From assembly GCA_965649765.1 (NCBI GenBank), contig OZ287759.1, positions 34,038,001-34,102,000 on the forward strand: a stretch of 64,000 nt of DNA. The letters run 5' to 3'. Positions within the stretch are counted from its first letter, which is position 1, and each line of letters starts with the position of its first letter. The notes below the pieces were generated by a model. That model searched no databases, was not told where the DNA came from, and saw only the letters and a list, made by a program, of their open reading frames with translations. The position numbers and the translations under genes were made by a program. Of this stretch, positions 37,504 through 64,000 are shown piece after piece. This stretch comes from Bispira polyomma (Eukaryota).

Positions 37504-37967
37504 CAGGCCCTGCCACCCAAGGAAGATGAAACTCAAGAAATAGGACAATTGAGGTTCACTAGTTTATTATACACACATTCATAACTACCACTACAATTTA
37601 TTTACACTTCCATTGTTATACACACTTGAATTGATTATACACATTTATGTTAATACATATAATTTATTTGTAACAACCTTAAACTGATCTTCAAGTTAAG
37701 GTTGGTATGGTGATCCACTAAGGTCACCTTAACTTAAAACCTTTTACTGACCTTCAAGTTAAGGTTGGCTTAAGTACCAACTAAGATTACCATAACTTTA
37801 AACATTTTGAGTTTAAGGGGACCTTAATGTTCCCTTTGTTCTACATTTACTTGATACAGTTATTTAATATGAGGTGAAGTTCAGATACGTATAATTCTGA
37901 ACATATTGAGTATTAAAATACAATTACTGACTATAACAATAGGATTACATAACAATATATTTTCCCT
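37504..37967 (-). repeat. Element C repeat B1
   Basis: High identity to 36766-37122 plus 31884-31987. Confidence 0.93.
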
Positions 37968-38005
37968 CAAACCCAACAGTAGGGTAGTGTGCATGTATGA
38001 GCCCT

Positions 38006-38979
38006 TTATGATAATATAGCTTGGAAAGAGAGAGCAACCTGCTCCCCGAGTTTTTGATCTGCCTGAATGTAAGTCCACACACAGTCCGACGTCCAGGTGC
38101 CCTGATGCTTAATTTGTTGGATTGGTATGTTTGCATTATAAGCAAACGAGGCACCTGAACGTCGGAAAGTATGGAAAGAGAAGAAATGTGGATCTAATCC
38201 CATTTGTACATTGATTTTTGAGAGGGTTTTTCTGATACGAGAATCAGTCATGACTTGCCACCCTGTGGCCGTCCTATATTGAAATAGTGGCTCATGCTTT
38301 TGAGGGTTATAGAGCTGGAATACCTCATGCAGTGCTTTGTATGGACAGAGTTTTGATTGACCTAGTTTTGGGAGACTAATAATGCTAACTTTATTCCTGT
38401 CCTGCATTGTCTTAGTCCATTTAATGAGTACTTTGACCAGATTTTTTGTGAAGAAGATATCCCCACCTGGTAAGTGCCTAGTGCTGTCAAACGTGTTTAG
38501 AGAATGAGGAGCAAGGTTGAAGACTCTGAAAAACCCGAAAAATGCTGTTAAGAACACAGCTTTGAACACTTTGCCCTGAGGTATTCGCTCACATAGTGAA
38601 ACCAGTGTTTTTAACATTTCTACATCCATTATATATCTTCTAGTTACTGAAACAGGCCTGTTTATCCTAACTGCTTTCACAAAATATTTCACTTTTGGGT
38701 GTTCCAGGCATTTATAGGGTAAATCATACATGATACATTTTGCTTTAATTGCTGAGAGGTGATTACTTATCATGTGAACTGAAACTCCACTTGCTACTAG
38801 ACATTCCAGAAAAGCTAAAACCACTTTAGTTTTGATTTTTGACAATTTAACTTTAGCATATAAACAGAACGAGACAAAGTTCTTGAAAAGCATATTATAA
38901 CATTGCTGTGTCTTTGGTCTGAATGCCTGTTGCAACCTTGCACCTGCTTGACCCGACAGCTTTGCTACCACAGTGTGAT
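38006..38979 (-). CDS. Element C tyrosine recombinase, uninterrupted frame (~325 aa)
   Basis: Catalytic set visible: FFR, IKWTKT, FHTFRRSGA, HQGTW, VWTY. Frame begins at acceptor TTTGTTGTAG|A. Confidence 0.93.
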
Positions 38980-39029
38980 CTACAACAAAGTATAGCACCG
39001 TTAAATATCAGTTTATGTTGATACTGTTA

Positions 39030-41550
39030 TTATAATTCAATATCTAGTTCCAACATTTGTACTGACACATTAAGCCATACTGGCTGTTCTACATACATCA
39101 ACAGTTCTCTGTTATTTTGTACCGTATGTTGCCATCTGGATAGGAGATCAGCAGCTCTGTTTAATTTACCCATCACATACACGTACTGGAGGTCTACATC
39201 TGCCAGTGCTGCCAAATACCACACATTTCTAGCACAGGCCCCTAAAAATGGGTCCCTGGCTCTACCAGATTGCAACACTTTGACTACATCATCATTATCA
39301 CATTTGATAAGTACTTTCTTCCCACTCCAATGCTTATAGAACAATCTCAAAGCAAGTAATATATTGATCATCTTTAAATGGACAACATCTAGATTTTTGT
39401 AACCCCTACATATTGTAAGATGGTATACCATATCCTTCCATCTGCCCCCTAGGCCTACTAGGCATGCATCAAGTTCTAACACAAAATCAGCATTTTTGTG
39501 GTCATAAATGGAGATCCCATTGTACAGTGGCAGAAATTTTGAGAACCATCTCAAGTCTCTAAAGAAATCAGTGGGCAATTGAATTTTCCCCCCATGCTGG
39601 CTTCTTCTCAGAAGTTCCAGCATTCTATTTAGGAAGAAACAAGCTGGTTTGACACATTTGTGGACGTACAGTAGCAGTCCCAAAAGGGACTGCAACTGAC
39701 GTGTAGTACAAGTCGTTGTTATGCCATTCCTTAACCACTTCATTAATTTTGTTAAATTTTTCACCCGGAATTGAGATGGTTCCGTTCTCAGTGTTTATTA
39801 GTACCCCTAAGCATACAGCTTGCGTACTAGGTGGTATAAGTTTTTTGTCACTTATAGTCAAACCTAACTTCTCCAACAAGTTGTGTAGATAGTCATATGA
39901 GTACTTGGCAACCGTGGGCGTGCCGTACCCAATAAAATCATCTATATAGTTGACAACGCTGTATCCACGACAACGCATGACATACCACACGCCATCGCTC
40001 AACTGCTGAAAGATTTGGCTGACATGTCAACTACCAAACGGCTGACACGTGTCGACGTAAGTGCCATTCCAAGACAGGCCAAGTAAGTCGTAGTCACACG
40101 GATCAATTTTGACGTGTCGAAATGCCCGACTTACGTCAATTTTGTATACATGCGCTCCACACCCCAATTTTTTAAGTTCATCTGTGATATAATCTACCGT
40201 TGGGAAGGTCAATGAAAAATCAGTCCCAAGGTAGTTGTTCTTATCAATGCCTGCATTCAGCGTGTTGCCTTCTGGCCAACTCAAATCAATAATGACACGC
40301 CTATTGGCCGAACCTGGTTTGTCTCTGGTCATAAAGGGGGAACAATGCCCTCCTTTTATTGGATGTTTGTCAAAAGAGCCTATTATTGCCCCAAATTTAG
40401 TTTTTTTTCATTTAAATATGTCTCTATGTCCTCTGGGTGTTCAATTGCAGACTTGTGGTTCTCCCCTTTCCACACTAAGTCATTCTCCCTATTAAAGTCC
40501 AGAGAGAAACCATATTCAATCAAATCAATTACTTGTTGATCCCAATAATCTTTTAGAACAAGCTTCCACTGATCTACATTTAATTGGGATTTAACTGGAA
40601 TTCTTGTTTGTTGGAAATTAAACTTTCCACTTTTTTCACTTCATAATGGGCCTTTATGGGATCTGTTACTACCGGGCCTTGAGTTTTTACCTGATTGTTA
40701 TGTAATGGGTCAGACATTGGAACAAAGCCATATCTACAGTCTGTTTGCTCTAACCACAGTCTGTGTGTCAACACCTTATCCAGTATTTGTGTCACGTTCC
40801 TATGTTTGTAAAACAACGAGTGTACAAACTTGTCATCACCACTCTTGTTTATGTCAAACAATTGTTTTTGTCCACCACCCGTTTTCAGTTTGTTTTCACA
40901 TTCAATTAAGTTACTGCTAACTTTTATTTCAATTTGATTTAGGACGCCCACTTGAGCCCTATCCCCACTTTGTTAACTTGTTGACATCTCTTTTGTCCCC
41001 CACTTACAGCCCCCCATAGTATGGGTTGCTATTAATGGGCGAGAGTGGACCACTTGTTTACACAAAGCCATTGTTTCTCTGCTACTACCAATTACCTTTG
41101 TACACACGTTTTGTTTCACCCCGTCCCCAGTGACAGGGCTGTTCTCATTACCAGACCCCCTTTTGACACGACTCCAGTTAATTGTTTGTTTTGGTTTGTT
41201 TCTCTTCCCTTCCCCACGGGACTATGGAAGTACCTCACCCAATTTTCCTTTCTACTAGCCAACAAGGCTTCTACACTTTTTCTTGCTACTTTAGAATTAT
41301 AGAAATTTCTATTCCTGTGTGGCTCGTGTACTTGAGCCATGTTTTGTTTATTAAACCTGTCACTGAAAACGTGCTTTTTATGACCCTGTTCCACACCACA
41401 CTGTGTAGAATAGACTTCAGCAACCTTGCTGTCACACATATAAACATTGTTTACATCATTTACATTAAACAACACACTATTGGCCTCGCCTGGAAATTCA
41501 GTTTCTTTTAGTCTATGTACATAGCTGCTCCCTTTATTTAAGAAAGGTGA
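39030..41550 (-). pseudogene. Element C RT/RNase H (disrupted)
   Basis: MTRDKPGSANRRVIIDLSWP, KIDVSRAFRH, YIDDF, LDACLVGLGG, KCDNDDVV, NRAADLLSR. Confidence 0.92.
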
Positions 41551-41582
41551 GCAGCCTGCTGCTCGTTTTTTGAGTGATATGA

Positions 41583-42474
41583 TTATTGGCCAAACATACA
41601 ATCTTTTTCTGGGTGAGCACTCACCCTGCCCCTTTCCAGGCAAGCCGAACATATATGTTTATGGAGTTTGCCCCCGTTCTTGTGGTCCTTGGCCTCGCTA
41701 CATGCCCCCGTTTGGTAAAGTTTACAATACCAATGTTTCCTATTTTGATTGAATTCCTGATTTTTACCCCAGGTACCTTTCTGTGTGACTACATGCTTCT
41801 GTGCATGAGCCCTATGTATTCTATCTATCCTATGACTGTCTTCCCATTTAACCGTCTCCCTTTCCATCTCACACAAAAGAACTGCATGGGCTGCTTTAGC
41901 CGATTGCCACGAGAAGAAATCTTGTTTTTAACTACCACCTCAATATTTCCACCCCTTTTAGATTTAATTTTACTTGACCCTTCATTACCTTTTTGACTGG
42001 TGGACTCAGCCTCTAGCTCACGAACTCATGCATCAACCTGTTTTTGTAATACATTAGCACTTCTCAACGTTGATATCCAAGGGACAATTTCCTCATCTGA
42101 GGATGACTCAGACGAGTCTTCTAAAGTGGAAACAGTACGTTTTTAGTTTTTGTTTTATACTTGGAACTACTTAACTTAGTTTTGTCCTTTGGTGATGATC
42201 CGCCAGCCGCAACCTTGCCCCCTACCACGTCCAGTCTTTTGTTGACCTTTCTCAGCTGCTGCAGTATTTGCTGCTGTATGTCCTCCTCTGATGAAGCTGA
42301 CTCTGCTGAGGGAGATCTCCTGCCTTCTGTGTACTTCTTGGTCGCCCTGTCTGTCTTCCTCCCCTGGTTCTGCTCTGCCTGTTGCTCCTCGGCCACTGCC
42401 GTACAGTTTTTTCCAGTTGGAGGATAATGTTTTTTCAAGCACTTTTTACAGTTTACTTTGTTTTTGCTCGGCAT
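41583..42474 (-). pseudogene. Element C ORF1 (gag-like) with N-terminal CxxC-H-C motif and C-terminal Cys/His fingers; internal deletion
   Basis: CKKCLKKHYPPTGKNC, IKSKRGG, RIDRIHRAHAQ, CKLYQTGAC...HKHICSAC...HPEKDC. Confidence 0.82.
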
Positions 42475-42807
42475 ATTTATTATTGCCTTTGCTTTTATTC
42501 AATTGTTCAGTATCTAGAGATAGAAACATACACAAACACCCAGTACGCTTTTCGATGCAAATCCAAGCTTGATAGCCAATTTGAACTAAATACCCTGCTA
42601 ATTATAATAGGTTAGACCATCCCTTTTTGGAGGCTTTTTCAAGCCAAATCGAGCCTGAGGTTGTCGAAGAGCGTGTCTAGCATACGTGTAGCAGTAATCC
42701 AATATGTTGCACACAAAATGTAAATGTCTGATTAAAACAAACTAAAATATTTATAGATTAAAAGTTGCTTCATATAAAAAGTCATAAAAAACATAAGTGA
42801 ATTCAAA

Positions 42808-43039
42808 CACATAAATCACAACTGACTCCTTCATTAAGTCAGTTTGAACTGACTTGTTTATCCCTTATTCTTAAGCAAGAACCAGTCTTGTCCAATTAGC
42901 TTCGTTGTATACCTAGTTACCTAGTGATAGAGGGGGGGGGGATTCTAACCCATGTCAAAATTAACCAGTTAGCCTGGTCTCCTAAGAATTTAGATTTGGG
43001 TTGGAGGCCTGACCCCTGTGATGCCTAGACACCACTGCC
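42808..43039 (-). repeat. Element C repeat A1 (5' terminus, probable promoter)
   Basis: Matches A2. Ends just after an initiator-like TCAGTT on the minus strand. Confidence 0.9.
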
Positions 43040-44140: not shown

Positions 44141-45055
44141 ATGACAGAATGTGATCTAATTTGATTATCTGATGTCTGGTTGCTTTTCTTCTGCAAATTT
44201 TTCAAATAAATAGCACTATGTAAACTAATTCCAAAAATCTCACACCCACTGTTTCTGGGTATTAGAACACATCCAGAAATTTACTCTTTGGTAGTGTAAT
44301 ATTTTTACGGAGGTATGCACACTACTGAGTGCCCTGCTTGTAATGAAATGTTTTTATTATTGCCTCATGACTACAGATGTATTGTGTGATTGAGAATTTT
44401 TTATGTATTGGGATGTAATATGATACACTATTGACAATGTCAGTCCACATATTCCAAAAGTTGAACCATACAAAAGTCACTTATCTCAAGTAGATAGAGC
44501 TATAAAACCCTGAAAGTATTGGTTGCGCTACTACTGCTAGGTAAACCCCACAGGGTTAGTAAGGTCAGTGCTGACTCTAAATTCTTTTTAGAAAGCTATT
44601 CTGGTTATGCTGACCTCTAATAGTGATTGACTGGCAGTTGGCCTCCTTCTCTCTTAATTCCCGCCAAAAACTACAAACCTCACTTCAAATTAAGAATTTG
44701 TGAAGAGCAGAGTAAAGTAAATTAAAATTAAGGTGTATAAACACTGTGGTGTTATGCTACGCCTAAAACGTTTTTACAATATAATAAATAATATTATATA
44801 AAACAACAAAATGACTAGACACACAAATAAAAGGCAAACAATGACTAGAATAAAAAAAAAAAAAACAGAACAAAATGACTAGACAAACAGATATATATAT
44901 ATATAAATAAAATACAAAACGATGACTAGAATATAAAGGGTCTACTATTTAATAAATAATATAAAGAACATTATTATAACAAATAACAAAAAACAAAAAC
45001 AGCAATATTAACAAATAAGCTACAAAACAATGACTAGAAATACTAATGCATTAAA

Positions 45056-48000
45056 ATTTATGAAATAAGTTAATTTCTTTTAAATAATTAAAAACACTAT
45101 TACATTTGCATCTAACAACTATTACATTATTACTATTAAAATATTTTCTTTGAATGTCATGTAGGTCGATAGTCTAATAATATGCGTGACTGTATTGGGA
45201 CAATGACATGGAATGCACCAGGGCATATCCTCACCTTTTAACAGATAACTGTGAGTAAAATAGGTGTGTCCTATACAGGCTTGAGTGATAGCTATTTCTT
45301 CCCTACAAGATAAACCCGTCCAAAAATTAAAATCTCCAACATGAGGGTTTATTTGAAATAGTTTGTTATCAGGACACGCATTCCATTGGGCTTGCCACTT
45401 TTGTTTAAAAGTACTATTTACATTAACTTTAAAGTCTGTATAGGGGACTTTCAAGTCTAAAATGTTAAAATTCAATGCTTGTTTGGCAAGCTTGTCTGTC
45501 ACTTTATTTCCCTTAATACCTACCTGACTAGGAACCCATGCTAAAACTACTTTTTTGTTCGCTAACAAACACTGATTAAAAACCTTTAAAATATCCTGTA
45601 AATAGGGATGATCACAGTTATTGCCCTCATTGGCTTTCAGACTAGAAAGAGAGTCAGTGAATACAATAAACTTTAGCCCCTCACAATTTCCAATAATGTT
45701 AAATACCATTTTCAGAGCCTGCAATTCAGCTGTGAATATGCTAGCATTGCCAGGTAATCTAATTTGGGCACTGAGGTCATTTGATGTTGCTGCTGCAGCT
45801 ACTTTGTTTTCATCTTTAGAACCATCAGTATATATTGCCCTGTGGTCAGGATAACAGTTGATCAACTGGCTAAAGAGACTTTGAAATAAATAATCGTCTC
45901 CTATATTTTTTTCTATTTTGTGCCAAGTAGTAATCAATGTGTGGTTTTTGTATAGTCCAGGGTGGGTCTTCTGGCAATGACACAGTCTGAATTAAATCCA
46001 ACCGAGGACAGACAGCAGCTAAGTCTGCTTTAATACGATGCCCAAATGATCTTATAGCAGATGGTTTATTTTCATACTTATCTATGGACTGAAGGTTATA
46101 TACTACTTCATAGGTTGGATTTTAAGAATTACTTCTCAACTTTATTGCATACTGAACACACAGTTTATGAAATATCAGGCATAATGGTGGTTCATTAGCT
46201 TCTACATATAAACTTTGCATTGGAGAAGTCCTAAAGGCTCCTAGGCATATACTTAAGCCCTGGTATTGGATAAATTCCAATTTTCTCAAATAAGACTTAC
46301 GGGCAGAGCTAAAAACTGCGCAACCATATTCCATCCTTGATCTAACAAAAGATTGATATATCCTTAGTAGTACACTTCTGTCCGCACCCCAATCCATTTT
46401 TGAGACTACTTTTAATAAATTCATTGCTTTATCACATTTGTTACGCACATAGTCAATGTGTGCTTTAAAATTCAACTTGTTATCAAGCATAATGCCAAGA
46501 AACATTGTTTGTGTTGCTACAGGTGTCTGAGTGCCATATAATGTCAATCTTGGATCTAGATGGAGTTTTCTTTTGTTACAGAAGTGCATGCATACTGTTT
46601 TAGTTTTAGAAAATTTAATACCATTTTCATCAGCCCATTTTTCAATTTTATTCAGGCATAGCTGTAATTGTCTCTCTATAGAGGCCATATTATTTGAGCT
46701 ATATGTTATTGAAAGGTCATCAACAAAGAGAGGCTTTTCAAAGTTGGATGGAATAATATCACTTATGCTATTGATTTTTAAAATAAACAAAGTAACAGCA
46801 AGGATACTACCTTGAGGAACACCTATTTCTTGATTGTGCATATCTGAATAAACTCACCCCAGACGAACCCTAAAAACCCTATGGGATAACAAATTCTGAA
46901 TAAAAACAGGCATTCTACCACGAAGCCCTGCCTTATACAAATCTCTGGCAACACTATATTTTTATACAGTATCATATGCTTTTTCCAGATCAAAAAATAC
47001 TGAAACAACATGGTTGCCTTTTAAAAATGAATCTCTAATTAAAGATTCAAGTCGAACTAATTGGCCTGTTGTAGTTCGACCTTTTCTAAAACCACTTTAA
47101 TGTACACTTAAAATGTTGTTTTTTTCAAGGAACCAAACCAATCTTGCATTTATCATTCTTTCCATGGTCTTGCAAAAGCAGCTCGTCAAAGATATGGGAT
47201 GGTAATTGGACGGATCTTGTGGGTCTTTATCAGGCTTAGGAATGGGTATAATAGTTTGCTTTTTTCCAGCATTCAGGGATTTCACCTGTTAGCCATATTT
47301 CATAAAATATTTCTAAGAGTACCATAAGTGAATCCCTTGGTAAATGTTTAAGTAATTGATAATGTACATCATCAGGCCCTGTGGCTGTATCATGAGACTT
47401 TTATAATGCATCTATTAATTCCGATATATGAACTCCATGTTATAATTTTCATGGTTTCTTGATGCAAGATTAAGCTTTTCTTTTTCAGTCTTTTCCTGAT
47501 ATTTCTGAAACTTAACAGAGTAATTCTTATTGCTGGAATTTTTGCTTATTTCTTGGGCCAACATATTTACTATATCTCCTCTTTCTGTTATTTTACTTAC
47601 ATCAGTATTTACTAGATGTGTCATTGTTGTATTATTTTGCCTTCCATTTATTTTCCTTAGCATTTCCCATACCTTTTTGGCTGCAGTATTTGTATTTAGT
47701 TTTGATATATATTCCTTCCAGGAGCTTCTTTTGGCTGCTTTAATTACACTCCGAGCCTTAGCTCTGCAGTTTCTATATTCATTTATATTTGCCGATGTTG
47801 GATTTACACAGCATCTATCGAGGGCTTTCTGACGAGCTTTAAGGACTCTTTTACATTCATCATTAAACCATGGTTTAAAACTACCAGTGGACTGTTCTGA
47901 GGTTTTAGGTATACTTTTTGTGGCTGTGCCATTTAATTTATTCATAAAAACAGGAAACTTGTCATTCAAATTTTGAAATGTATCTCTATTAATTTTAAGT

Positions 48001-48733
48001 GAGCAATGTAGCTGATATTTTACCCAATCAGCCTTTTTAATATTCCAACAGGGTATATTGTCTCTTGGTATATTTTTAACTATATCGATTAAAATTGGAA
48101 AATGATCACTACCACATTGGTCACTGTGAACTTGCCAAGTATATTGAATATTGGAACGTAATGATAAATCTATTACAGTTAAACAGCCTGTAGCTGGATG
48201 TAGATATGTAGGAGAATAGTCATTGAGTAAACAAACACTAGGTGAGTCTAATATATGCTCAATCTTTTCTCCTCTACTATCACAGTGATTTGAGCCCCAC
48301 AACTCACTATGGGCATTAAAGTCCCCTATTAATAAAAATGGTTGTGGCAGTTCATTGACTAGATTATCTAAGTTTTTCTGTGCAACTGTACAACTTGGTG
48401 GAATATATATACAATATATAGTTATTGTTTTGTGTAGAGATACTTTACCTGCTACGGCTTGTAACTGTGTAGTTATGGTGATTACTTCATGTGGCACACC
48501 TTTTTTTAACAAATAATGAGCAACCTCCAATTACTCTTCCATTAACTTCTGAAACACTAGTTTTGTAATAGTGATCATAGCCTCTTAATTTGTAATTGTC
48601 GTTGTTTTTAAAATGTTTCCTGCAAAGCTAAAATGTATGGACTAAAATCAGAAATTAAATATTTAATTTCTTCAAAATTTGGCTTATAGCCACATCAGTT
48701 CCACTAGATAATGTGTTTTTGGTTTGGTTTCAT
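45056..48733 (-). pseudogene. LINE ORF2: APE endonuclease, RT, RNase H
   Basis: LIGDFNAHS and GSDHFPI (APE). YHPISLTSCFCKTMERMI, GVPQGSIL and LFVDD (RT). YTDGSK, AELQAL, FTDSLS and WVPSQVGIKGN (RNase H). Confidence 0.93.
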
Positions 48734-48749
48734 TATTTATTACAATTTT

Positions 48750-49776
48750 GACTCTGGGGTCATTCTCACCATCTGAGTAAAGAGTATCTTGTTTATTATA
48801 TTGTTTAATAAGATCATTTGACCCTTTTTGAATTTCTGTTTCCTGTTTTGACAGCTTGGTTTCTATTAAGAATTACCTTGCTCTAGTTATTTGTCACTTT
48901 GACTGTAACTTTGTTTAAAACTACTTTTGAATCCTTTTTATTTGGTAATTTTTTTGGACTTTTTAATGTTTCTGGCCGTGTCCTGTCTGTCTGAGTTTCT
49001 TTGGAGCAAAGTGTCACAGATTTTTGTTACTTGGGCATATGATGTTTTTACACTATTAAATATTGATATTTGTTTCTTGGCTTCTGTATAAGATATTCTT
49101 CTTTCAGTTTTGATCTTTTGGATTTCTTTTTCTTCTTTCCATTTTGGGCAAGTTTTGTCAGTAGCTGCATGATTTCCTTCACAATTAATACACTTGGCAT
49201 CAGTTTCACATTCATGTATATCTGTATGATTCTCACTGCCACATTTTGGGTACACTTCTTTCCTCTACATATAAATTTTGTATGACCAAATTTTTTTACG
49301 CCTTCTTTCGTCCTCTCTAAAAATCGTTATTTGGTCTAACTTTACAGCACCCTCAGATTGCAAACCTTCTAATATTTCATCATCTGCACATTTTTTGATA
49401 TCTGGACATCTTATCACTCCTTTTTTTGTATTCAAAGTATTACAGGGGTTACACTGATTGGTATTGAGTAGTCCATTGTCAAGTCCAATTTTGTTGTTTT
49501 CAAAAGTTTGTCATTTCGCTTTTCTTTATCTACCTCAACTAGAATATTTCCTGATCTTAGTTTCTTGATGGTGACAGGTTTAGTGCCCAATACAGATAAA
49601 ATTGCCTTATTAACCGCAAAAGGTGAAAGTTTCAGTAGGGAATTGTCTGTATCAGAACCTTGTATGACTAAAAATTGAGGCCAAGAACAAGCAATACCAG
49701 TTTCCAAAGTCATAATTCCTGGGTCATTCGTGGGTCTAGTCCTTTTCCTACCATCCGTTTGATTTTGCGATGCCAT
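48750..49776 (-). pseudogene. LINE ORF1 (gag-like, CCHC)
   Basis: KLSPFAVNK, IKKLRSGNILVEV, KCGSENH...C, KCINCEGNHAATDKTCP, ISYTEAKK. Confidence 0.88.
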
Positions 49777-50366
49777 GGTTAAAAAGGTAATATTCACTGC
49801 AAATGCTCTCCACCCACCCTTCGAGCCCAACAAGGGGATATTTAATTGTGTGGGGCTAAGCCCAGCACACAGGTACCAGAGATACATTAGCAGTATACTC
49901 AAAGCCCACCAAAAGTGAACCTCAATTAACCTGTTAAGCAGCCACCTTCTAGATACTCCAAACAAAAGCACAAACCAGACACCAGCAGAATAAAAGTAAC
50001 AAAAACAACGATATAAACCTTCACTAACAACAAACCATCACTTAATTTGGAGCACTAGGGCTTGGCGCTACCAACCGATTAATTAAGCCAGGCCATCTTA
50101 ACCTTCCGTCTAAGTGAAATTGAATCCAAAGCTGTGTATTGCCTCCTCAATGCCGCAGCAAGGTATTGGCTAAACAGCCAGGACCCTCTCTTCCACTGAC
50201 TTGTCAAACAGTTTTGACATATGCAAATTTTGGCTCTTCTTTTAGGGCAACGGTTGAGGGCTGTTCTTTCTTTGATTTAAAAATTTAACCATATTCATTT
50301 GAATTTACAAAACCGCAACCCGAAAATCTGCATATACCAAAGCATTTTTCTGTGTATTTTGTAGAG

Positions 50367-51423
50367 ATGGCAAATTATGATTGTCAGGCATGTAAGACTA
50401 GCCATAAGAAGCCCATTGATGATAAATGTCCGTAAACTGAAACTAATGACAAAGTGCGGGTTAAGTTTACGCATTTTAGAAGAACTGAAAGGCTTTAGTG
50501 GCCGAATGTTAGCAATGGAAAAGCATGTATATCAGACTGAAATTAGAAATAATGTTGCAGGCACTACAAGTTCTGTGGCCACCATGTCTAGTATAGTTCC
50601 TGCTACACCCATGTTTGTTAAACCTTCAGTGGTTGGTACTTCTAGTGTGACTACTGTGGCCCCTGCTCCGGTGAGGTTCCCTGCCACAGCTTCAGCCCCA
50701 GTGACAAATCAAACAGTGACTGGCCGGGCGGCTCTTGCTACTCCAGAGATAGATGACACACTGGTTTCTTTGCTGAATACCCTAAAATCTTCTGACTACC
50801 TACAGCATGCAGTGGATACCAGACTGCGCGTCCTGGCTGAACTCAATGATAAAGGTAATTTCAAGTCCAAAAGAGGCGGAGCTAAAACGATCTGGGTTAA
50901 ACGTCAGGTGGCCTGGCCACAGAATCATATACTTGGGGGTGCCACAAAAGCACGTACAACCTATGACAGCCTTTTAATGGCTCAATGGGTATCCGGTTTC
51001 TGTGCCATAGCTAGAGATGAAAACAATATTGACATAAAATACGTCATGCTAGATTATGCCCAAGACCTAATGGAAGATTGTAATGATTTTTCCTTGGCGG
51101 CTGCCAAAGGTAACCATGCAGTTTTGCTTTGTCGAATGCAAGAGGGTAAAGTTTCATGGGAAGAAACAACAAAAATCAACCGAATTAGAAGGGCTCATGC
51201 CCCCAAAGTGATCAATACTTCGACTCATTCTAACTATCATGGTTCCAGTAGGCAAAAAAGTAATAAAAAGGGGTTTCCCTGTAGAGTCTGTCAAAAAGGA
51301 TCATGTCCCACCAAATTGATCACGAGACAAAAGTGCCAATGTACTTGCATATCTGTGCCACTTATTTTTCCTCGGGTAAAATTTTCCCCATGCCTCCAAA
51401 GACTGTCAGAGGAAAAAGACTAG
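50367..51423 (+). pseudogene. Element D ORF1 (gag-like)
   Basis: MANYDCQACKTSHKKPIDDKC (alternative frame), KSKRGG, VAWPQN, QWVSGF, RIRRAHA. Confidence 0.82.
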
Positions 51424-51449
51424 CAAGTTTAGCGAACTAAATAGTACAA

Positions 51450-53795
51450 AAAACAAATAGCAAAAATTCATAGACAAGATTCTAGTCATGCTACCAAGGT
51501 AACTGTAAATGATTATAAGAGATATTGTACTGGTACAGTTGTAAAAATTGTCAATGTCAAATACTTGTGTAGCGACAACTGAAGGGCTGACTGGGCCAGA
51601 TTTAAGAATAAGTCATATGCTCAAGTAGTAAAACAAAACAATGGTAGCTTAAATAGAAACAGATGTCTGGAAAGGATTTCAAATTCAGATCTAAGAAATC
51701 CCCCAAAATGTCGCTCAAATGTAAATAAAAATGTGTTGATCAATGTTTAAAAAAATAATGTAAACAGTTGGAGGAATTCAAATGTGATGGTGAAAGTAAC
51801 AGAATCGCACGGACTGAAGCCTGGGGCAAAACACCCTACAGTCCATCTTGTGAACAATAGTCCTATTGACACCTCTTATTCAAAAGAGAGGGGTGCCGAT
51901 AAGGTAATGTCATGCCAAAGTCGGGGTCATGTAGTGTCAAACAATGTTGGCATAACATATAAGAATAGGTTCACACCTGCAAACAGTTACTGAAAATGAC
52001 ACAAATGCAATTGACATACCCCATTCTGCTGATAATGTTCCTAATAATCAGTTAGGGGACAAATACAAACTTCAGCTACAAGTTAAGAGGAAACATGGAG
52101 AAGTGGTTGCTAAAGCGGAAGGCAATCCAGTGTTTGAAAAGTAGAACATTCAAAGAAAGAGAAATTTGGCTTCATTCCACTAGGCGATTTAAAACTACTA
52201 GAATTAGTAAAGCCCCAGCCACACTTAGATGACCCTCTAGAAATGCATAAATTAGTCAAAAAAGGTAAAGCTCCTAACTTCCTAGGTACTCAAATACCAG
52301 TAGTGTCTCAGCTTAATGTGGACGAATGGCAAAAGCTCTTAGTCAACTATTCGGACACCCAATTGATTCACTTGATAAAATTTGGTTTTCCGTCAGAATT
52401 TAATAGAACTTCTCCCCTAGAAATTAAAGGGGAAAATCATAGATCAGCTGCCCAATTTACAGAAGAAGTACAAGCATATCTCAAAGAAGAGAAAGATTTT
52501 GGTGCAATCATTGGTCCATTCAAAGAACCCCCATTATCCAAATTGCATGTGCCACCGTTTTAGACGCGCCCCAAACTGGATGCTAAACATAGGGGGGTTA
52601 TTATCGACCTAAGCTGTCCACAAGGGTGGGTGGTTAACTTAGCTATAGAAAGAGACCACTATCTTGAAATCCCTTTTATACTAACACTCCCCACTGTAGA
52701 TGATATCACTCGAAATGTAGTAAAATTGGGAAAGGGGGCTTTTCTATATGAACTACACTTCAGTGGTGCTTTTAGGCATGTGAAAATTGATCTAGCCGAT
52801 TATGATCTCCTTGGACTAAAACTCAATGACTACTGTATTAACACGTGTCTACTGCTGTTTGGCTATTGCCATAGCAGCATGATTTTTCAAAGATTAAGTG
52901 ACACAATTAGATTCATCATGACGTCACAGAGTCATGTCGTCATAAATTACACGATGACGTAATCGGGTATGGTCTTTCCTCAACAATCTCGCACTCAAGT
53001 TAGGATTTACAATCAGTGAGAAAAAACTGGTAGCTCCTAGTACCAAGGTAGTGTGTCTAGGCGTTTTAGTCAATACTGAAAACTACACAGTCTCTATTCT
53101 GGATAATAAATTGGAAGAAATGAAACAAATATGTCAGACTTGGATACACAAGCAAAACTGTACTAAAAGACAGCTACAGTCATTACTCAGGTCACTTCTG
53201 TATATCTCTCACTGTGACAAGCTTACTTAAACAGAATGTTAGATACCCTGAGAGGTACTCAAAATACTCATGAAATCAAACTGGGTAGAGATTTTCCCAA
53301 GATTTGAATTGGTGCAATATCTTATTGACAACCTGGCATGGCCTTTTTTGACCACAAACCAGTTACAGAGCAAGTACATTTTGATGCATGTTTGCAAGGT
53401 CTGGGAGCTCTTGGTTACAAAATTTATACCATTGTACATCTGGAAATGGTCAACATTTAAGTCTCCATTAGGCTCTGGAAAAACCAATGGACTTAAAAAT
53501 TAGTAAAAAATTACTAATACACTGCGACAACCAAGCTGTAGTTTCTATTCTAACCTCAGGTAAAAATTATGATCTCACCCTGGCAGCTATGACCAGAAAT
53601 ATCTTTATGGAAGCTGCAAAAGCAGATATTAAATTAAGAACAATACACATTCTGGACAAAAGAAACAAAATAGCTGACTTACTTTCCAGGTAGGCCATTA
53701 CTACCAACAGAGATAGAAAATTAAATGAGTTAATACAGGACCCCATTTGGCTACAAGTTTCTGATGAATTGTTAGAAGTAGATTGGTCTATATAG
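51450..53795 (+). pseudogene. Element D RT/RNase H (heavily disrupted)
   Basis: IKFGFP, ENHRSA, LTLPTVDDIT, AFRHVKID, HCDNQAVV, NKIADLLSR. Confidence 0.88.
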
Positions 53796-54291
53796 TTCTT
53801 TCACAATTTCAGCTTCCGCGACCTGGGTCTCGAAACTAGCAGACAGAGCAGTCACTCGGGCACACCAGGCATTTTGGTCTTTTACACAAAAGGCCTACAC
53901 ATCCATGTTTAGAGTATTTTAGGCTTACTCCTGTTTTGCCAATATTTCAGTATCTAATGTCACACCTACAGTCATCTTGGCCTTCCTGGAGGTCATAACA
54001 CATCACATACCTCAGTGGCAAATTATCTTTTAGCAATAAAAGCTGAGATGTCATTGTATGGCCTGCAAGTAACTGCTATTGCGGATCAAAGAATCAGATA
54101 CTTTCAGAAAGTCCTCATTCTAGACGAGCCCTTCAGAGCCAAACTTACTGGTATTATTGACATTGAAAGATTGAAAGACATAGCCCTAGTCTGTGATTCT
54201 GGTGGGCTGACGCCTATGCGACAGCCCCCCTCAGTTCTGGTGGCTGGTCACTACGGGGGCCAACTAGGCCACCAGGGGTCACGGGGGCAAG

Positions 54292-54330
54292 TATAAAAGG
54301 GTTTGCCGCCAATAGACGCCGTCATTATTT
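54292..54330 (+). promoter_or_regulatory. Putative TATA box and initiator of element E
   Basis: TATAAAAGGG at 54292 with TCATT about 30 nt downstream. Element B has an analogous TATAAG...GCCATTTT on the minus strand near 36570-36597. Confidence 0.5.
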
Positions 54331-57300
54331 TAAGAGCATTTGATAGATAAACAGTGTTTTACAACTGGGGCTTCTACTACCCCTAATATTACTTTTAAAC
54401 CTCGTTTTATATCTATGTAAATATGCCTAACAAGGAATATCCTTGTAGTGTGTGCTATGGCCGAACATCCGCTTGGCAAAAAGTGTAAATATAACTTGCT
54501 GGACAGCGTCTTCGAGGAGGTACCTGCCATCGGTTCTGCTACTCCAGAGGTTTTTGATTCTGTTTCTGGGTTTCTGGACAGACGGGTACAGGCTACTGAA
54601 GCGGCGCAGTGTACACCCAGCGCCAGTAAGGCATGTAGCACTTCTTCTAAATGAACCTCTAGTGTAGTTAATGCTAGTGAATCAGTAGTTGAGGCCGTTG
54701 TGCCATCTCTAGGGTATTTACGTTCAAATGCAGGGTTACAAAACCAGGTCGATGAGCGTCTGTTGCAATTGCAGCACTTAAATGATTTAACGGGAGATAA
54801 AGTCAAATCCCAAAGGGGTGGTACTGAGCCCCCCGTAAAAAGAAATGTGGATTGGCCACAGAATATTGTCTTATTCGGTGTTAAAAAGGTCAGACCCATT
54901 TTTGATGACCTCTCGTTGGTTCAATTCGTTTCTGGCTTTATTAGGTGTACCCAAGAACAAAAGTTACCTAATGTCCGAGAGGCCATGTTAGAATATCTTG
55001 CCAACTTAATGGACGACACCCATGATTTTTCATGCGACGACGCCAAAGCCTCTCATGCTATTCCGTTAACCAATATGGAAATGGACCGTTTTAACTGGAC
55101 AGATGTTGACAAGGTCGACCGGATAAGGCGTGCTGACGCACAACGTCATGTTACTCCGGCATCGAGTGGGTCTGGCCCTTCTAAAAACAATAGTAATGGT
55201 AAAACCAAAGCACAAAGAAAAACTTCAGGTGTAAATTGTCGTTTCTTCTAAGAAAGAACATGTAAATTTAAGGCTGGCCATCGAACTTCCGGGCAGTGGT
55301 TCAAACACAGCTGTGAGAGTTGTGATGGTGCTCACCAGACCAAGCTATGTCCCAAAAAAGTGATTTAAAAAAAACTGAGGGGCCACTGCGACAGTGCAGT
55401 GGCTGACAAAAAACCTGTAAATAAAATATATTCTGGAGTTGTATATAATTTCTACATTTCTGATTTTAAACTGTTTAACTATGTACATTTTAATTCTCGT
55501 GTGTGGAAAGCAAAGTGTCCCAAGATCTTATCGGGACGTGTTAAAACAGGGCACAGGTGGTGCCGTTGGAAATTCTGGCAAAAAAAGTTGGGCAAAATTG
55601 GGGAAATACTCGAAATCAGGGCCCAGCCTGCCACAGTCCCGAGGCAAAGGTGGTAAACATGTTGTTAACGAGTCATTGTTCCCCACAAAACGTGTGGGCA
55701 CAAACAAAGTTACACCTCTTGTCAACAAGCCATTGTTTCGGTCGAATGCAACTGTTAAAAACCATGTTCAAGACAATTCAGTGAATGTGCCAAACCATAA
55801 CCGTGTTTTCCCTGTCAAACCAATTAAGTTGAGCAGTGGCGGGTGTAACAATGGACAGGGTGTCTCCCCTATTGTTCAACCAATTAAGACGGGCAGTGTT
55901 AAACATAACAATGAACCTGGTGGTTTTAGGTTGGCCCTTCACAACAGGTTTGCTTGATTGGGCAATCAGTGTGCAGAAACAATTAAGGAGGGTGACACTA
56001 CACTCAACAGAAGGAGTCAATACTGTGACACGACTTTACCACAAAATAAACAACCGACTTCCAAATTATCACAATGTGATGACAAATATGCTTTGGACCT
56101 CTTCAGGGGACCTGACAAAAGACAGCGTTTAAATGAGGCTAAGGACTGTGTGACATATAAGTTGTGGGACGTTCAAAATAGTGGCAAGTATGGGTTTATT
56201 CCAATCAGCAACTGGGGTGACACTGTAATTGACTACTCAAGTGACAACTTATCAATGGACGTTTTTACACAGGCATCTTAGGTCGGATGGACGGCCCAAC
56301 TAAAGGGGCCTACAAGTACCTGTCAATACACAACTCAATACCCAAGTGTGGCCCAAGTATCTGAAGAATTATTGGGATTGGGAACTCCCCTTATTGATAA
56401 AATTCGGGTTTCCCTTAGATTGTGATGGTGAACATGAATTTAAGATTGAGATTAATAACCGCTCTTCTGCCAACCAATATCCCGACCACGTGACTCACTA
56501 CTCGGAGGAAGAATGTTCATTGGGTGCTATGTATGGGCCGTTTACAGTTCCCCCCATTGAGAACATTCACACTTTCCCATTCATGACTCGGGACAAATCA
56601 AGCTTGACTAACCGACGAGTCATTATAGATTTAAGTTGGCCCAAGGGCCATTCCGTTAACGCAGCAGTGTCTTCCAAACCATACTTGGATAAGGAATTCA
56701 TACTTACATACCCCTCTATTGACGCTATCACCAGCCAAGTTATGGCCATGGGTAGGGGTTCCTTGATATTTAAAGCTGACATAAGTCGCGCCTTCCGGCA
56801 CGTGACCATTGATCCAAAAGACATAAATCTGCTAGGTCTGTACTGGAATGGCTACTGCATTGACGGTTCATTACCCTTCGGTTATCAGTACGGTTTGGTT
56901 ATTTTTCAGAGAATTTCAGACGGAATAAGGCACATAATGGAGGGTGAAGGTCACCAGATTACAAACTATATCGGCGATCTCCTATGTTACTCTATTCCCT
57001 CTAAAATAAATAAAACCTATAATAGACTTCAGGCCCTCCCAGCAGAGCTAGGTTCGACCCTCAGCCAGAAAAAAGCTGGTTCCTCCGGCAACTCGGGTAA
57101 CATGCCTCGGCATTGTCATAGACAATTTCCATACCAGAAGAAAAGCTAGCCAGCATTCAGACGATGAGTAACAAATGAACCAATAAGAAATCTTGTACCA
57201 AACGGGAACTCCAATGTTTATTGGTTTCTTTGTTGTATGTTTCTAAATACGTGAAATACTCAAGGTTCTTTTTGAACAGAATGTTGTACCTTCTGAGAAG

Positions 57301-57894
57301 CAATCATAAAAGTAAAACTATGAAAATGACCCCTGAGTTCCAAAAAGATCTCAATTGGTTCACCATTTTCCTTCACAAATATAACAGGGTTATTTTTTCC
57401 ATCATGCCCCTGCTGCTGCTATGATTGAGGCATGGGGGAATCTATGGGAAACAAGTTTATTTCCTCCCCATCCCTGCTTCCATGCAACAACAAAACATTG
57501 CCTCCTTAAAAATGCTAAACATTCATGTTGCCTTGAAACTGTGCGAAAGACACTGGCAAGGACAAAAAATACTAATAAAATGCGACAACCAGGCCATTGT
57601 AAGTGTCCATACTCATGGTAGAACTCGGGACAGTGAATTAGCCTTGTACTCCCGAAATATATTCATGCTGGCTAGCCAGTTTGACGTGGAGTTAAAAGTG
57701 ATACACATTTTAGGACATGACAACACAACTGCTGACCACCTGTCTCGTTGCACAAATTCGACAAAAGATAATGTTCTCTTGTAGGAGCTGGCTGGCACTG
57801 TCAAATGGTATACAGTGACTGAAGACCACTTGTTGCTTAATAACTATATATAATGTATTACTATGTCTTCTTCTGGCAGTATTTTGTGTTACAG

Positions 57895-58894
57895 CCAATA
57901 ATCCATTGCAACAGTTGCTAAAAAGAAATGCATCCAAGAAGCTCCACCTGGCCTTTTGCAGATCAACTGACATATCATATACAGCTATGTATAGGGTGTA
58001 CTTGGCTTATGCTACATTCCTGGATCTACCCGTTGATCAGGTGACAATTATTGATGTTCTTGCATTTTTATAATTGTTGCATCATAACGCAGTAAAACCT
58101 GCCCATATGGCAAATTATTTATCTGCCATTAAGGCCAAGTACATTGTCTATAATGTACCTATATGTGCCTTCAGTGACCCTCGTGTGGCCTATTACCAAA
58201 AAGCTGTGCAATTAGCTGCCCCCCCCCCCCCCCCCTTCATGTAAAGCTTAACAAGGTTATAGATATCCCACTGTTGACCAGTATCGTGAGTATTTCACTC
58301 ACTACTTATATGGGCTTAGTATTCAAAGCACTTTACCTTGTCAGCTACTTCTTTCTTAGGCAATCAAATTTAGTACCTCATTCTTGTGCTCAATTTTCCT
58401 CTTTGAAACATTTGGCTAGAGCGGATGCCATGATTCATAAGCATAAAGCTGTCCTCCTTATTAAATGGTCGAAAACAATGCAAAGCAACAACCAGATTAA
58501 GTTGATCACAATCCCACACTTGTTGGGTTCCCCTCTTTGCCCAGTAAGGTTCCTGAAGTGCATTTTTGCTATTACACCTTCTGAACCTAATAGCCCTCTG
58601 TTTCAGTTTAAAGACAATGTAAAGTGGGTACCTCTTACTGACACTCGAGTCCATCGGCATTTTAAAAATGTACTTGCCAGGTTACAATTACAAGACTCTG
58701 GTCTTACCATGCACGCTTTCCAACGTTCAGGTGCAACTTTTGCTTTTAACCATAACGTTAGCATTCAAAACATTTAAAATCATGGCACCTGGACGTCGGA
58801 CTGCGTGTGGCGGTATGTCACCAACTCGGTGGATGCTGGTGATCAGGTAGCTGATACATTCAGGCAACATCTCTCTGCTACTTCCCCTTCCTGA
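57895..58894 (+). pseudogene. Element E tyrosine recombinase (disrupted)
   Basis: FLRQSNLVP, IKWSKT, LCPV, MHAFQRSGA, HGTWTSDCVWRY. Confidence 0.9.
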
Positions 58895-59770
58895 ACTCCT
58901 ACTTGCTGGGTTTGGGTGTTTGTCAACCATAGTTTATATCAAATTTAAATCATTAAGTAATATCGTTGATTCAGTGTACTGAGATGCTAATAATGTACAG
59001 TGTTACCTGCACATTCCAACTAGCTCTTTAAATTAGTATTATTTGCATGTTACAACAATTACTTTAACTGATCTTGTTAACTTTCTATTAACTTAAAATA
59101 GTTAACTTTGCAGTAGAGGTCGGTAACAGTATTTAAGTGCAAATTCCAAAGTTTAACTCTCTCAGTTAAAAAAATTAAGGTCACCTTATTCTGGTAATAA
59201 GCCTACGGGCCATGTAAATTAATATAGACAATAAGCGTAAGATGACCTTAACCTTTCTTACAATCATGTCATGTAAAATATTTATTATTATTTAAGTGAC
59301 CTTAAGTCACCAAAATTGATAAGTGATTCAACTTTAGTTAAGGTCACCTTAACTTCTTTGTATTAAAACTTAGTATGACCTTAAGTCACCTTGTATATAG
59401 TAGTTTTAACATTTAGACTAACAATAAAATAAATATTTTAGCGCATTCTGGTGTTATAATTATCTTGCCTTCTTGACCTCTGACCCTGTCTGGCCTGTCA
59501 CCCGGGGAAATGTATGTATATGGGCCAAATTTACAAAGCTGCCTATCTATTGGCTTTCTTCTCATTTTTTGGAATTTCAAACTTAGTCACTCACTCTCAA
59601 AACACCTACTCACCATTGCAGCAACTTGCCATGGCTGACATCATATTCGACCCGCCAGGTGCCTATATTATAATAAAACGGACGAAAACTCTGCAATCTT
59701 GCAATGCTATCAAGGTTATTAAAATACCTGCTTTGCAAAATAAAACTATTTTCCCTGTAGCAGCCCTGAA

Positions 59771-59927
59771 TTTGAATTTGGATATTTAACGTCCACTCTA
59801 GTACCTTTTAGTAGGTTATATTGGGACGGGTAGTTGGAAAGCTGGAGGAAACACTGCATACAGTCGATCAAGGTTCTGCAGAGAAACTAGCGGCCCACAG
59901 TAAGGAACTACCACCTTTCCCACATAC
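59771..59927 (-). mobile_element. 5'-truncated copy of the tRNA-derived SINE inside the element D recombinase
   Basis: Reverse complement of the SINE 3' half. 13-bp TSD TAGCAGCCCTGAA (59758-59770 / 59928-59940). Confidence 0.93.
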
Positions 59928-61429
59928 TAGCAGCCCTGAAAGTGTTTTTGGCAATCACTCCTGGTACCAAAAATTCTCCACTTTTTTAAGTAAAAACTGA
60001 CACTCAGTGGTTGACTTTAAGAGATAGTAAAATTCAGAAAAATCTCAAACATGTCTTAACTAGATTAAATAAAGAAAACTCAAACATTACTTTCCATACC
60101 TTTCGTCGTTCTGTAGCGACTTTAGCTTTTAATCCACATGCCCCTCTCCAGGACATTCAGAGTCAGGGTATCTGGTCTACTGAATGTGCATGGAGCTATT
60201 TTACACGAGACCATTCAGCCTCTGACCAGGTCGCTCTGGCCGTCCAAACTCTGCTCAACCCTACCTCCTAGTTAGGCCTTGGTGGTTATTGTATCTCTTT
60301 CTATCATTTATATCATATAAAGTTTACACATTTTTATTTAGTAAGGCCACCTTATAGTCAAAACTTTGCGTAACCTTAACTATACACATGTAAGGCTTAG
60401 GCCAATTGAAATCTTGTAATTTTGTTAAGGTTACCCTTAATTCTCGTAAATCTGAAGTCTAATTAAACTTAAGTTGTAACCTTAACTAGACACATGTAAG
60501 GCTTAGGCCAATTTAAATATGGTAAATTTGTAGATTAAAATATATAATCCCCAACTGCTAGTTTCAATCAAGGCCAATCTTCAAACTCTAGGTCAGAGCA
60601 CTGTTTTAACAAGTCATCAATAAAAGGACCATACATATCCAAGTCTTTCTTCAAGAAAATACAAAATGAAAAAAATATTTTTCCCCAATCTTTCTGTAGA
60701 TTTTATTAGATGTCATCCAATTATCTTTTAAACATGGAAAGTTTATCAGCCAATAAAAAATACTTGTCTCCACTATTTCTTATGACACGAATATTGTATT
60801 GCCCTTTTTTTCCTTATTTTTCTTGACAAAGCGAAGTAGGGCCATTCATTGTGTTCAATTTACTTTTGTGGGACAATATTTTTTTTTACATAAATAGTAA
60901 AAAAATACATCAAATCTACAGCATCTTATTTTAATGTAAATCATCTTAATAATGTACTAATTTTCATGGACTGAAACTACAGTATTTTAATATTAACTAA
61001 AAATAACTATTTTTTGACTGAAATATTAAACTTGTTTACAATAACCAAGTTAAGGGTGCTATATTTTTTTTAAAAAATGTAAGTAAATTTGCAAAATAAT
61101 GGCAAACTTTTCTTTTGTCAATTCTTATCTAATTTATATTTCACATCCCTGTATGTAATAATGTACACTTAATGTGAATGTTTTTATGTCACCAAAGGAG
61201 ACAGTCTACATAATGATTATTTTAAATGGTAAAAACAGTAAGTAGACCTTTTTCGTTTGACAGTGGGGTTATATTTTTTAGTTCTAATTAAAACTCTTGA
61301 GTGAATGTATATTTGATATCCCTAGCCAAAATAAAAAATTAAATTTTTATTAATGTTATTATCATTAAAAATTAAAGATATATGTCAACGTCAATTTGAG
61401 CTGGGTTTTTACACACTATCTACTTAACG

Positions 61430-62249: not shown

Positions 62250-64000
62250 ATCAAATTTGAAAAATTTATTTAATACCATAGTCCACCCTCCCACCAAAAG
62301 GGTCACATGATCACATGATCACTTGTTTACTTTATTATTTTTGTTGTAAAAGAATTACGTGCAGGATCGGCGGGAGGGACCCCAATTATCAAGAAATTGT
62401 AAGTATTTCTAATAAAAATTTAAATTACAAATAAAATTTTTCAAATTTTATAGCGAAATACTATTTTTATTTCCTACTGTAGCTGAATCCATCCTAATTG
62501 GATGGAGGGAATTCTTTTACTGAGAACCCGTACCACCTTAACAGCAGTGTGCAAAGTCCATAGACAAACCCATTACACAACTACACCAGCAATCTTAATT
62601 AATAAAGGTTAGAATACCATGCTGAAAATGTATGTACTTGTTATAGCAAATTAAGCAATATAAGGTAAAAACACAATACCTCACAAGATGTGAGGTATGA
62701 AGCTGTTCTGTAAATGTAAAGGTGGAAACTATTCAACCTATCTCCATATGTACAGACTACCCATTGAAGAACTACCTCGACTCTAAAGAAGAGGTGTCAA
62801 CTGCAAATAGAAATAGATAGTCAAATCAAACGACTATGTAGAACTATTGTAGGCTATTCATCCTGTAATAGATGAAAGACTAAATTAAATATTCATACCA
62901 AAGAATACTTTTGTAACCTAATCATAGATGCAAGCATAACAAAATGAGCATTAATGATATAATAATAACGTTACAACTGTGATCATCTCAACGTAGAGGA
63001 GCCGCGGTGGCCTAGTGGTTAGCAAGCATGGCGCTTCATAATCACTGGTCTCTCACCTCTGGGTGGCGTGAGTTCAAATCCCGTCGACGCCTATGTAGGA
63101 AAGGTGGCAATTCCTTACTGTGGGCCGCTGGTTTCAGTGCAGAATCTTGACCGACTGTATGCAGTGTTTCCTCCAGTGTTTCCAACTACCCATCCCAATA
63201 TAACCTACTAAAAGGTACTAGAGTGGACGTTAAATATCCAAATTCAAAAAAATTTCATCTCAACGTACATGCAAACATAACATATGAGCACACTACTTAT
63301 GTTCACTGCAATCATCTCAAACATAGATGCAAACATATCATGTGAACTTAACAATGAAATACTACAATGTGATGTGCAAACACAATTGGACCCAATTGAA
63401 GCATGTTACTATTATGCCAACTGAAGTCCTTGAGATAAAAGTTGGTGGAAGTATTTGTGGAAAGCATTAGAAAAATCATCCAAGGAAATTCTCCTCTTTA
63501 AAGCCAAGAAGCAGCCATAGATCAAATCGTGAGCTTACACTTGACCAAGTTGGTATGTCTCACTGTCTGACTTTTCATAAGCCAATAAGACAGTTCGTTT
63601 CAGCCAAGAGGAAATCGTGATTTTAGAAAACCTTTGTTATGACCTTGCTTAATAGCCACCAACAAGAGTTTTGTTCTTTCTTAAGATGCTTGGTTCTATC
63701 TAGGTAGAACTTAAAAGCTCTCACCGGCAAAGTGGGCTATCATCAAGAAGTTATCAAAGCTGGAATGACCAGTTGTTCTATAACATTTGGACAATCAAAC
63801 GCTAATTAGTTGTTTGGTAAAAAGCTGGTGATGGTAAAAAAGTAACTTCAGACCAAAATTCTCCTTATAACTTAAGAAATTATGGGTCCAAGAATGAAAC
63901 TAACTTGTTCTTTTTCCTTTCTCTGTTCACAGCATTGTAAAAAAATGGACCACCTTGACTCATAGATCTTTTTTAGAGGAAAGTCAGTGAGATCTGTTAA
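62250..64000 (-). mobile_element. 3' part of a decayed DIRS1-type YR retrotransposon running off the window
   Basis: Minus-strand 63361-64000 reads QLVIPAL, PVRAFKFYLDRTKHL, SKITISSWLKRTVLLAY, V*AHDL, MAASW, NFYLKD, LGPIVFAHHIV, a DIRS1-style YR C-terminus distinct from A-E. Left boundary approximate. Confidence 0.72.
62996..63254 (+). mobile_element. tRNA-derived SINE, full length
   Basis: A and B boxes. 13-bp TSD TCATCTCAACGTA (62983-62995 / 63255-63267). Confidence 0.93.

Follow-up and report, generated by a model that had tools for sequence, protein, structure and literature searches.

Gene-bearing, repeat-less copies of apparently Ngaro-type retrotransposons beside a canonical element in Bispira polyomma

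Introduction

A retrotransposon that carries genes and has exact ends, and has no terminal repeats, raises the question of whether it was inserted in that form or lost its repeats afterwards. The question is posed here by a 64,000-nt stretch of the Bispira polyomma assembly GCA_965649765.1 (contig OZ287759.1, positions 34,038,001 to 34,102,000), hereafter the window, meaning the whole stretch, which contains five tyrosine-recombinase (YR) retroelements, A to E. For A, B and E, a preliminary description had proposed that precise ends can be deduced from empty sites, that neither inverted terminal repeats (ITRs) with an internal complementary region (ICR) nor split direct repeats are present, and that either the repeats had collapsed three times by recombination or monomers are the normal, self-replicating form. 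Our analysis finds that the absence of repeats in these copies is real, that D shares it, and that C has a full set of split repeats; the monomers are most probably Ngaro elements in decay, or by-products of such elements.

The model of end restoration for DIRS-1 is carried over here to Ngaro elements, and we know of no experimental demonstration of end rebuilding in split-repeat YR retrotransposons. In that model the RNA falls short of the element at both ends; what is missing is restored from a copy of the end junction inside the element, and a circle is inserted by the recombinase at this junction (PMC7192593).

Results

Terminal repeats and ends

Elements were called by Pfam scans of 27 open reading frames (ORFs) and by tblastn with the proteins of E, in a window rich in repeats, with long interspersed element (LINE), Gypsy and short interspersed element (SINE) content. 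Split direct repeats of the type A1-B1A2B2 are present in C and missing in the other four of the five YR elements:

10992 to about 15597, plus strand: element A, a repeat-less divergent YR retrotransposon with RVT_1 and Phage_integrase matches, its ends placed by analogy
36765-31988, minus strand: element B, a repeat-less Ngaro-type copy with the gag core missing, inserted in the B2 repeat of C
43039-31884, minus strand: element C, with canonical A1-ORFs-B1-A2-B2 repeats, containing B
about 44540-60608, plus strand: element D, containing a LINE, E and a SINE
54201-59513, plus strand: element E, a Ngaro-type YR retrotransposon with a single leader-ORFs-tail and no terminal repeats, inside the YR gene of D

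The repeats of C, found by self-BLAST at 95.6-97.8% identity, are arranged as follows:

42808-43039, minus strand: repeat A1 (232 bp), 97.8% identical to A2
37969-42807, minus strand: body with gag, reverse transcriptase and RNase H (RT/RH) and YR, broken
37502-37968, minus strand: repeat B1, 95.6% and 97-98% identical to the two parts of B2
37272-37501, minus strand: repeat A2, directly after B1, which gives a natural B-A junction
36766-37124, minus strand: first part of repeat B2, preceded by a unique spacer of about 147 bp
31884-31987, minus strand: last part of repeat B2, displaced by B, with 2 mismatches in 104 against B1

A1 and A2 (232 bp each, 5.5 kb apart) differ at three sites and two gap columns in 232, and B1 and B2 at 14 sites and seven gap columns in 361, plus two in 104. 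B1 measures 467 bp, the starts of B1 and B2 lie 840 bp apart, and the A+B unit of C is 840 bp long. Each repeat-less copy corresponds to a canonical element minus one such unit.

Self-BLAST of A, B, D and E gave no more than short matches within the tail arrays of B and D and a single coding match between D and E. When 60- and 150-nt pieces of their ends were compared with body and flanks, none of 36 comparisons exceeded the maximum of the shuffled controls, with which one tied; direct comparisons in the same test on C scored 115 against 23-25 for shuffles. As a measure of power, a planted 150-nt copy was recovered in 50 of 50 trials at 30% divergence, 47 of 50 at 35% and 35 of 50 at 40%. A separate comparison of 150-nt pieces placed three of eight scores above shuffles: a direct match of the 3' end of E, which falls in the tail array adjoining that end, and inverted matches of 18-22 nt at the 3' ends of E and B, which are tentatively taken for the palindromic tail array as well. 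Terminal 60-nt pieces of all four elements stayed at shuffle level in inverted orientation, and a DIRS1-type ITR/ICR structure was rejected for A, B, D and E on such inverted comparisons. What had been said by eye of A, B and E is therefore borne out, and holds likewise for D.

The proposal that ends follow from empty sites stands for B and E. The empty site of B is supplied by the B1 repeat of C, with one G common to both junctions, and E interrupts the YR frame of D, which reads ALVCDS to its left and MYMGQ to its right where the uninterrupted YR of B has KVCDSMYMGQ, with one T common to both junctions. Both pairs of ends are exact, and target site duplications are absent, the overlaps being of 1 nt. 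The proposal did not hold for A, whose flanks gave no useful match within the window by blastn or tblastx, nor to each other. The 5' end of D (44540) is tentative, its likeness to the end of B being modest in score and tied first among 5098 windows compared, and its 3' end is approximate, resting on a weak likeness to the end of B that ranked first of 5098. All five elements start with GG(T/C), a motif that helped to place an end of A and of D and is not independent there.

Subterminal inverted arms across the B-A junction, seen by eye in all five elements, were rejected as a general feature. Among elements with independently fixed ends the p-value of the end-pairing duplex was 0.008 for B, 0.14 for C and 0.63 for E, so that only B passed; the values for A (0.07) and D (0.03) are circular, because the arms helped to place their ends, and non-cognate pairs scored equally well in several cases.

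The nesting of B in C and of E in D places two of the five YR elements inside other YR elements, which recalls the reported preference of DIRS-1 for insertion into its own copies (PMC7192593). The parts of D around its insertions are:

44540-44790, plus strand: tentative 5' leader, separated from the body by the LINE, with weak similarity to the first 70 nt of B
50080-54200, plus strand: body up to the insertion of E
59514-60608, plus strand: rest of the YR (with the SINE inside at 59767-59926) and tail, without repeats, 3' end approximate

The LINE, on the minus strand at 44790-50070, has endonuclease, RT and RNase H and was apparently inserted in the leader of D.

Coding content and kinship

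Gag-like, RT/RH and YR ORFs occur in that order, with mutual tblastn matches among all five elements, except that B is without the gag core and gave no match there with the gag of D or E. At 35778-35910 of B (minus strand), the first ~25 codons of a gag-like ORF, with Cys-x2-Cys, continue in frame into pol. Pfam detects RVT_1 in A, B and E and Phage_integrase in A and C, the YR matches falling below the curated cut-offs. RT/RH is present in all five elements, and a Crypton, which needs a YR without reverse transcriptase, was rejected on that finding. All five pols are broken: besides frame changes, the stops number about 1 in A, 2-3 in B, 1-2 in C, 7-9 in D and 4 in E. The YR of E is 36-51% identical to those of A, B, C and D. 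The features of E are:

54292-54298, plus strand: TATA box, position +92
54673-55296, plus strand: gag-like region, broken, 34% identical to the gag ORF of D (E-value 8e-32)
56009-57850, plus strand: pol (RT and RNase H) with 4 stops and 3 frame changes, found by tblastn with P0075 and P0111 and by RVT_1
58178-58895, plus strand: C-terminal part of the tyrosine recombinase, broken, from alignment with other YRs, 3' limit read from the sequence
59165-59396, plus strand: tail array of near-palindromic TTAAGGTCACCTTA-type units
59423-59433, plus strand: AATAAA signals, lying 91 and 86 nt from the 3' end

A search for pol homologs found 209, of which 120 were listed. The methyltransferase PF05869 occurs in none of these 120; the pols of the window align to the homologs' C-termini, which stop at RNase H. 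PAT-like elements, defined by split direct repeats together with a methyltransferase (PMC4157794), were rejected on the absence of the latter here. The split repeats of C without a methyltransferase give the Ngaro layout as defined in PMC4157794 and PMC3783388.

An RT tree of 72 rows, made up of the five window copies and 67 of the 120 listed homologs (every second one and the seven nearest matches) and rooted at the midpoint, placed C with the clade of E (support 95/97) and B with D (91/80), with A on a very long branch. Since C groups with the clade of E, apart from B, D and A, the repeat-less copies would not form one lineage, subject to the midpoint root. Assignment of the elements to the Ngaro type is suggested by kinship with C and by domain content, the tree being one without named reference Ngaro elements. 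Strictly, A, B, D and E, which do not have the split repeats, count as derived from Ngaro-type families rather than as canonical members of them. A scan for relatives returned one locus in metagenome contigs (L001 670-1566, a distant RT relative with 22% identity, not used) and none in viral contigs or in prokaryote genomes.

Transcription signals and tails

The signals reported earlier were found where they had been placed. TATA-like boxes, described as lying ~90-170 nt inside the 5' end, were located at +92 (E) and +170 (B), and AATAAA, described as lying ~60-90 nt inside the 3' end, precedes the end by 86 and 91 nt in E, by 73 nt in B and by 57 nt in A (whose end is inferred), against a background of 0.134 per 100 nt per strand. 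A CATT ~30 nt downstream of the TATA box of E is what we take to be an initiator-like motif. The further proposal, that a simple mRNA would lack both termini, is consistent with these positions.

In size and kind the tails of B, D and E match a single B repeat of C; the palindromic arrays are similar, and so is the spacing of AATAAA (67 nt in B1 of C). Near-palindromic units of the TTAAGG(T)NACCTTAA type form arrays at 59165-59396 (E), 32110-32398 (B), 60370-60531 (D) and, in the B repeats of C, at 36833-36961 and 37675-37808; several units form inverted pairs, and the short tail of A is without any. By eye, all five elements also have a motif CC(T)...TTGGG(T/C)TT(T)G just past the YR stop codon, at these positions:

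15437-15452: post-YR motif of A
about 32455-32470, minus strand: post-YR motif of B
about 37965-37990, minus strand: post-YR motif of C
58895-58915: post-YR motif of E
60260-60285: post-YR motif of D

Sequencing contigs

Positions 49700-61400 were compared with contigs of three sequencing runs (two samples, one study), the best of which may be the source of the window assembly. Single-copy depth in these runs was about 21, 12 and 79, and summed contig depth does not equal copy number. In all three runs a contig covering 60500-61161 joins the last 108 bp of D to 550 bp of flank with zero differences and at single-copy depth, evidence that D was not collapsed by the assembler. Joints were tested for E only, the tentative 5' end of D lying outside the compared range. 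The joint of the 3' to the 5' end of E was absent among the joints (15 of 188) and gap-joint rows (12 of 128) listed, the tables being filled by the SINE, and this speaks mildly against canonical relatives and tandems alike. E has few close relatives, with total depths of 86, 90 and 313 at 58929 and listed relatives 84-91% alike. In the third run (X3), summed depth reached 10874 at 54316 and 10317 at 59407, near the ends of E, against 528-1443 in the body; this several-fold excess, in a measure that is not copy number, hints weakly at many short elements of the AB type.

Other elements of the window

A Gypsy-type element at 211-9265 has long terminal repeats (LTRs) at 211-478 and 8998-9265 that are 91.8% alike; despite 22 differences, a single stretch of 127 of their 268 bp is identical, perhaps a conversion tract. 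A TatD DNase domain (E-value 6e-13) follows its integrase at 6968-7492. A very high-copy short element, probably a SINE, occurs at 59767-59926, 23292-23543 and 62996-63247, with a summed contig depth of about 1,000,000 against 21 for single-copy sequence (run X1). Longer forms of it continue with tRNA-like letters, and ARAGORN called no tRNA gene for it.

Discussion

Proposed loss of one repeat unit from canonical parents

Taken together, loss of a repeat unit after insertion and insertion from a one-repeat circle would make the four copies dead-end derivatives of canonical Ngaro elements, and this joint reading we consider likely. Between the two we lean tentatively, and short of calling it probable, towards the first: A, B, D and E would be dead copies of ordinary Ngaro families from which homologous deletion between B1 and B2 removed one A+B unit after insertion. 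Their parents, which we infer to have been canonical, would have been inserted as A1-ORFs-B1-A2-B2. Close direct repeats can collapse by annealing, and recombination would be expected to occur more readily between B1 and B2 (467 bp, starts 840 bp apart) than between A1 and A2 (232 bp, separated by 5.5 kb). What a deletion between B1 and B2 leaves behind would keep both original junctions exact and have no repeats left, and would hence be stable and final. Deletion between A1 and A2 would instead remove the genes and leave a solo AB, so that monomers would accumulate among old gene-bearing copies. In a canonical Ngaro the B1-A2 boundary would be the internal copy of the end junction, which a monomer would not have. 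To judge from its signals, monomer mRNA would start about 120-200 nt inside the element and stop about 50-70 nt short of its end; without its ends and without an internal junction, it would be a dead end unless circles or tandems were transcribed.

C, with its full set of repeats, lies in the same cluster as the repeat-less copies. Because a canonical element stands among them both in the window and in the tree, and because all copies are dead, repeated collapse between B1 and B2 fits best, as the preliminary description had envisaged, with four copies to be counted and not three.

Several observations weigh against loss after insertion. The repeat-less share is high (four of five), and B, which sits in the B2 repeat of C and is the younger of the pair, is repeat-less while C retained its repeats. 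The Gypsy element kept both LTRs (91.8% alike), so the region has not been generally stripped of repeats. A 3'-to-5' joint of E would be expected from canonical relatives and was absent among those listed, and no canonical member of the families of A, B, D or E was seen in the window or among the joints listed for E. The tree has a midpoint root only, with A on its very long branch, and none of the tests made tells repeats lost before insertion from repeats lost afterwards.

The choice offered earlier, between collapse and self-replicating monomers, was too narrow, as a third route yields the same product. A one-repeat circle, A-ORFs-B closed by a B-A junction and the counterpart of the retroviral 1-LTR circle, would be inserted by the recombinase, so that monomers would be born as such from canonical parents and would still be dead ends. 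Such circles could arise by crossover between A1 and A2, through template switching in reverse transcription, or by genomic excision that leaves a solo AB. This would account for the high share of monomers and for the younger B being monomeric already. C contains a natural B-A junction, in the standing model of DIRS-1 the YR acts on the junction of a circular intermediate (PMC7192593), and all the evidence for canonical parents applies equally. However, no circle or junction appeared among the limited contig joints listed, DIRS-1 cDNA is described as mostly linear and single-stranded, with a circle junction that could not be amplified (PMC7192593), and the accessible literature gave no published description. 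We consider this origin of the monomers rather unlikely, and would say much the same of its broader form, in which one-repeat circles are a main integrating species of Ngaro elements.

Self-propagation of monomers, the other half of the earlier choice, is more doubtful still. Here monomers would be the normal form, a recombinase-excised circle or head-to-tail tandems giving read-through RNA across the B-A junction for reverse transcription. Four of five copies are monomeric, the missing B-A joint of E among those listed is what would be expected without canonical copies, Cryptons move by a YR without long repeats (PMC13465315), and the ends of B pair better than shuffles (duplex p 0.008). Yet self-propagation would need at least three separate losses at the level of lineages, or a regain in the clade of C. 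All monomers here are broken, B without a gag core; tandems or circles would also yield a 3'-to-5' joint, of which there was none among those listed; no significant pairing was found between the ends of E (p 0.63) or of C (p 0.14); curated families elsewhere have split repeats (Ectocarpus, PMC12477816); and the present data hold no positive evidence for it. That several YR families here replicate without terminal repeats, by longer-than-unit RNA from a circle and reinsertion of a cDNA circle, thus combining a Crypton-like DNA step with a hepadnavirus-like RNA step, is accordingly quite improbable.

Collapse of A1-B1A2B2 into A-ORFs-B by the assembler is very improbable: the window does contain a gap of 236 N, no single contig among those listed spans a whole element, and the letters of E at 58929 and 58941 are missing in all three runs, but the repeats of C, although identical over runs of 73 and 99 bp, were kept separate in the same assembly, any repeats of copies that contain several stops should have diverged as those of C did, and the zero-difference contig leads from the tail of D into its flank.

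Comparison with known elements

The closest known system is Ngaro (DIRS order; Xenopus DIRS-53_XT and DIRS-54_XT, Cafeteria Ngaro1-4), with which the elements share the order gag, RT/RH, YR, the absence of a methyltransferase and of target duplication and, in C, the layout A1-ORFs-B1A2B2; A, B, D and E differ in having one leader and one tail only, with both ends exact in B and E. Xenopus Ngaro copies are often without all or part of their repeats, and the consensus of DIRS-54_XT is repeat-less, yet its copies 5 and 10 have repeats (PMC9210276). Of the 15 DIRS-subclass rows in a curated library of Ectocarpus, 13 are annotated A-int-BAB, one is without comment, one is incomplete and none is annotated as repeat-less, and the Ngaro rows have a target site duplication of 0 (PMC12477816 supplement).

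Solo AB repeats in Cafeteria Ngaro, ascribed to recombination between 5' and 3' repeats (PMC8547959), and SIRE, which equals A2B2 of VIPER (PMC6681497), are likewise derivatives through recombination between split repeats or loss around them. Those forms retain repeats and lose genes, whereas A, B, D and E retain genes and lose one repeat pair, and so are their complement. Type 2b Ngaros of Cafeteria lack the gag core, as B does (PMC8547959). Seven of 11 type 2a copies measure 6430-6453 bp and three 6018-6023 bp, and four of eight type 2b copies measure 4733-4783 bp and three 4312-4313 bp (PMC8547959 supplementary sheet 3); on lengths alone, with some rows maybe one locus in several strains, the class shorter by ~420-430 bp in both subtypes could reflect loss of one A+B unit.

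DIRS1-like elements (ITR and ICR) are also YR retrotransposons whose mRNA lacks both ends and which need an internal copy of the end junction; the elements here are without inverted terminal repeats, ICR and methyltransferase. Crypton DNA transposons share the YR, the lack of long terminal repeats and microhomology at the ends, whereas the present elements have RT/RH along with a gag-like ORF and are closely related to an element with split repeats.

Our literature search, outside which lay most subscription papers, the founding Ngaro papers included, found no explicit account of gene-bearing repeat-less Ngaro copies (A-ORFs-B) with exact ends. The gene-bearing, exact-ended monomer is a real structural variant of Ngaro that is apparently undescribed.

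For curators of such families, a consensus without split repeats, as that of DIRS-54_XT, may derive from monomer copies. Should the families turn out to be wholly without copies that bear repeats, they would require a replication route of a new kind. If exact-ended, gene-bearing monomers are common, their share by age would tell an origin after insertion, in which case they would be an analogue of solo LTRs usable as a clock, from the integration of one-repeat circles; and if such circles do integrate, monomers would be direct evidence of what the recombinase takes as its substrate.

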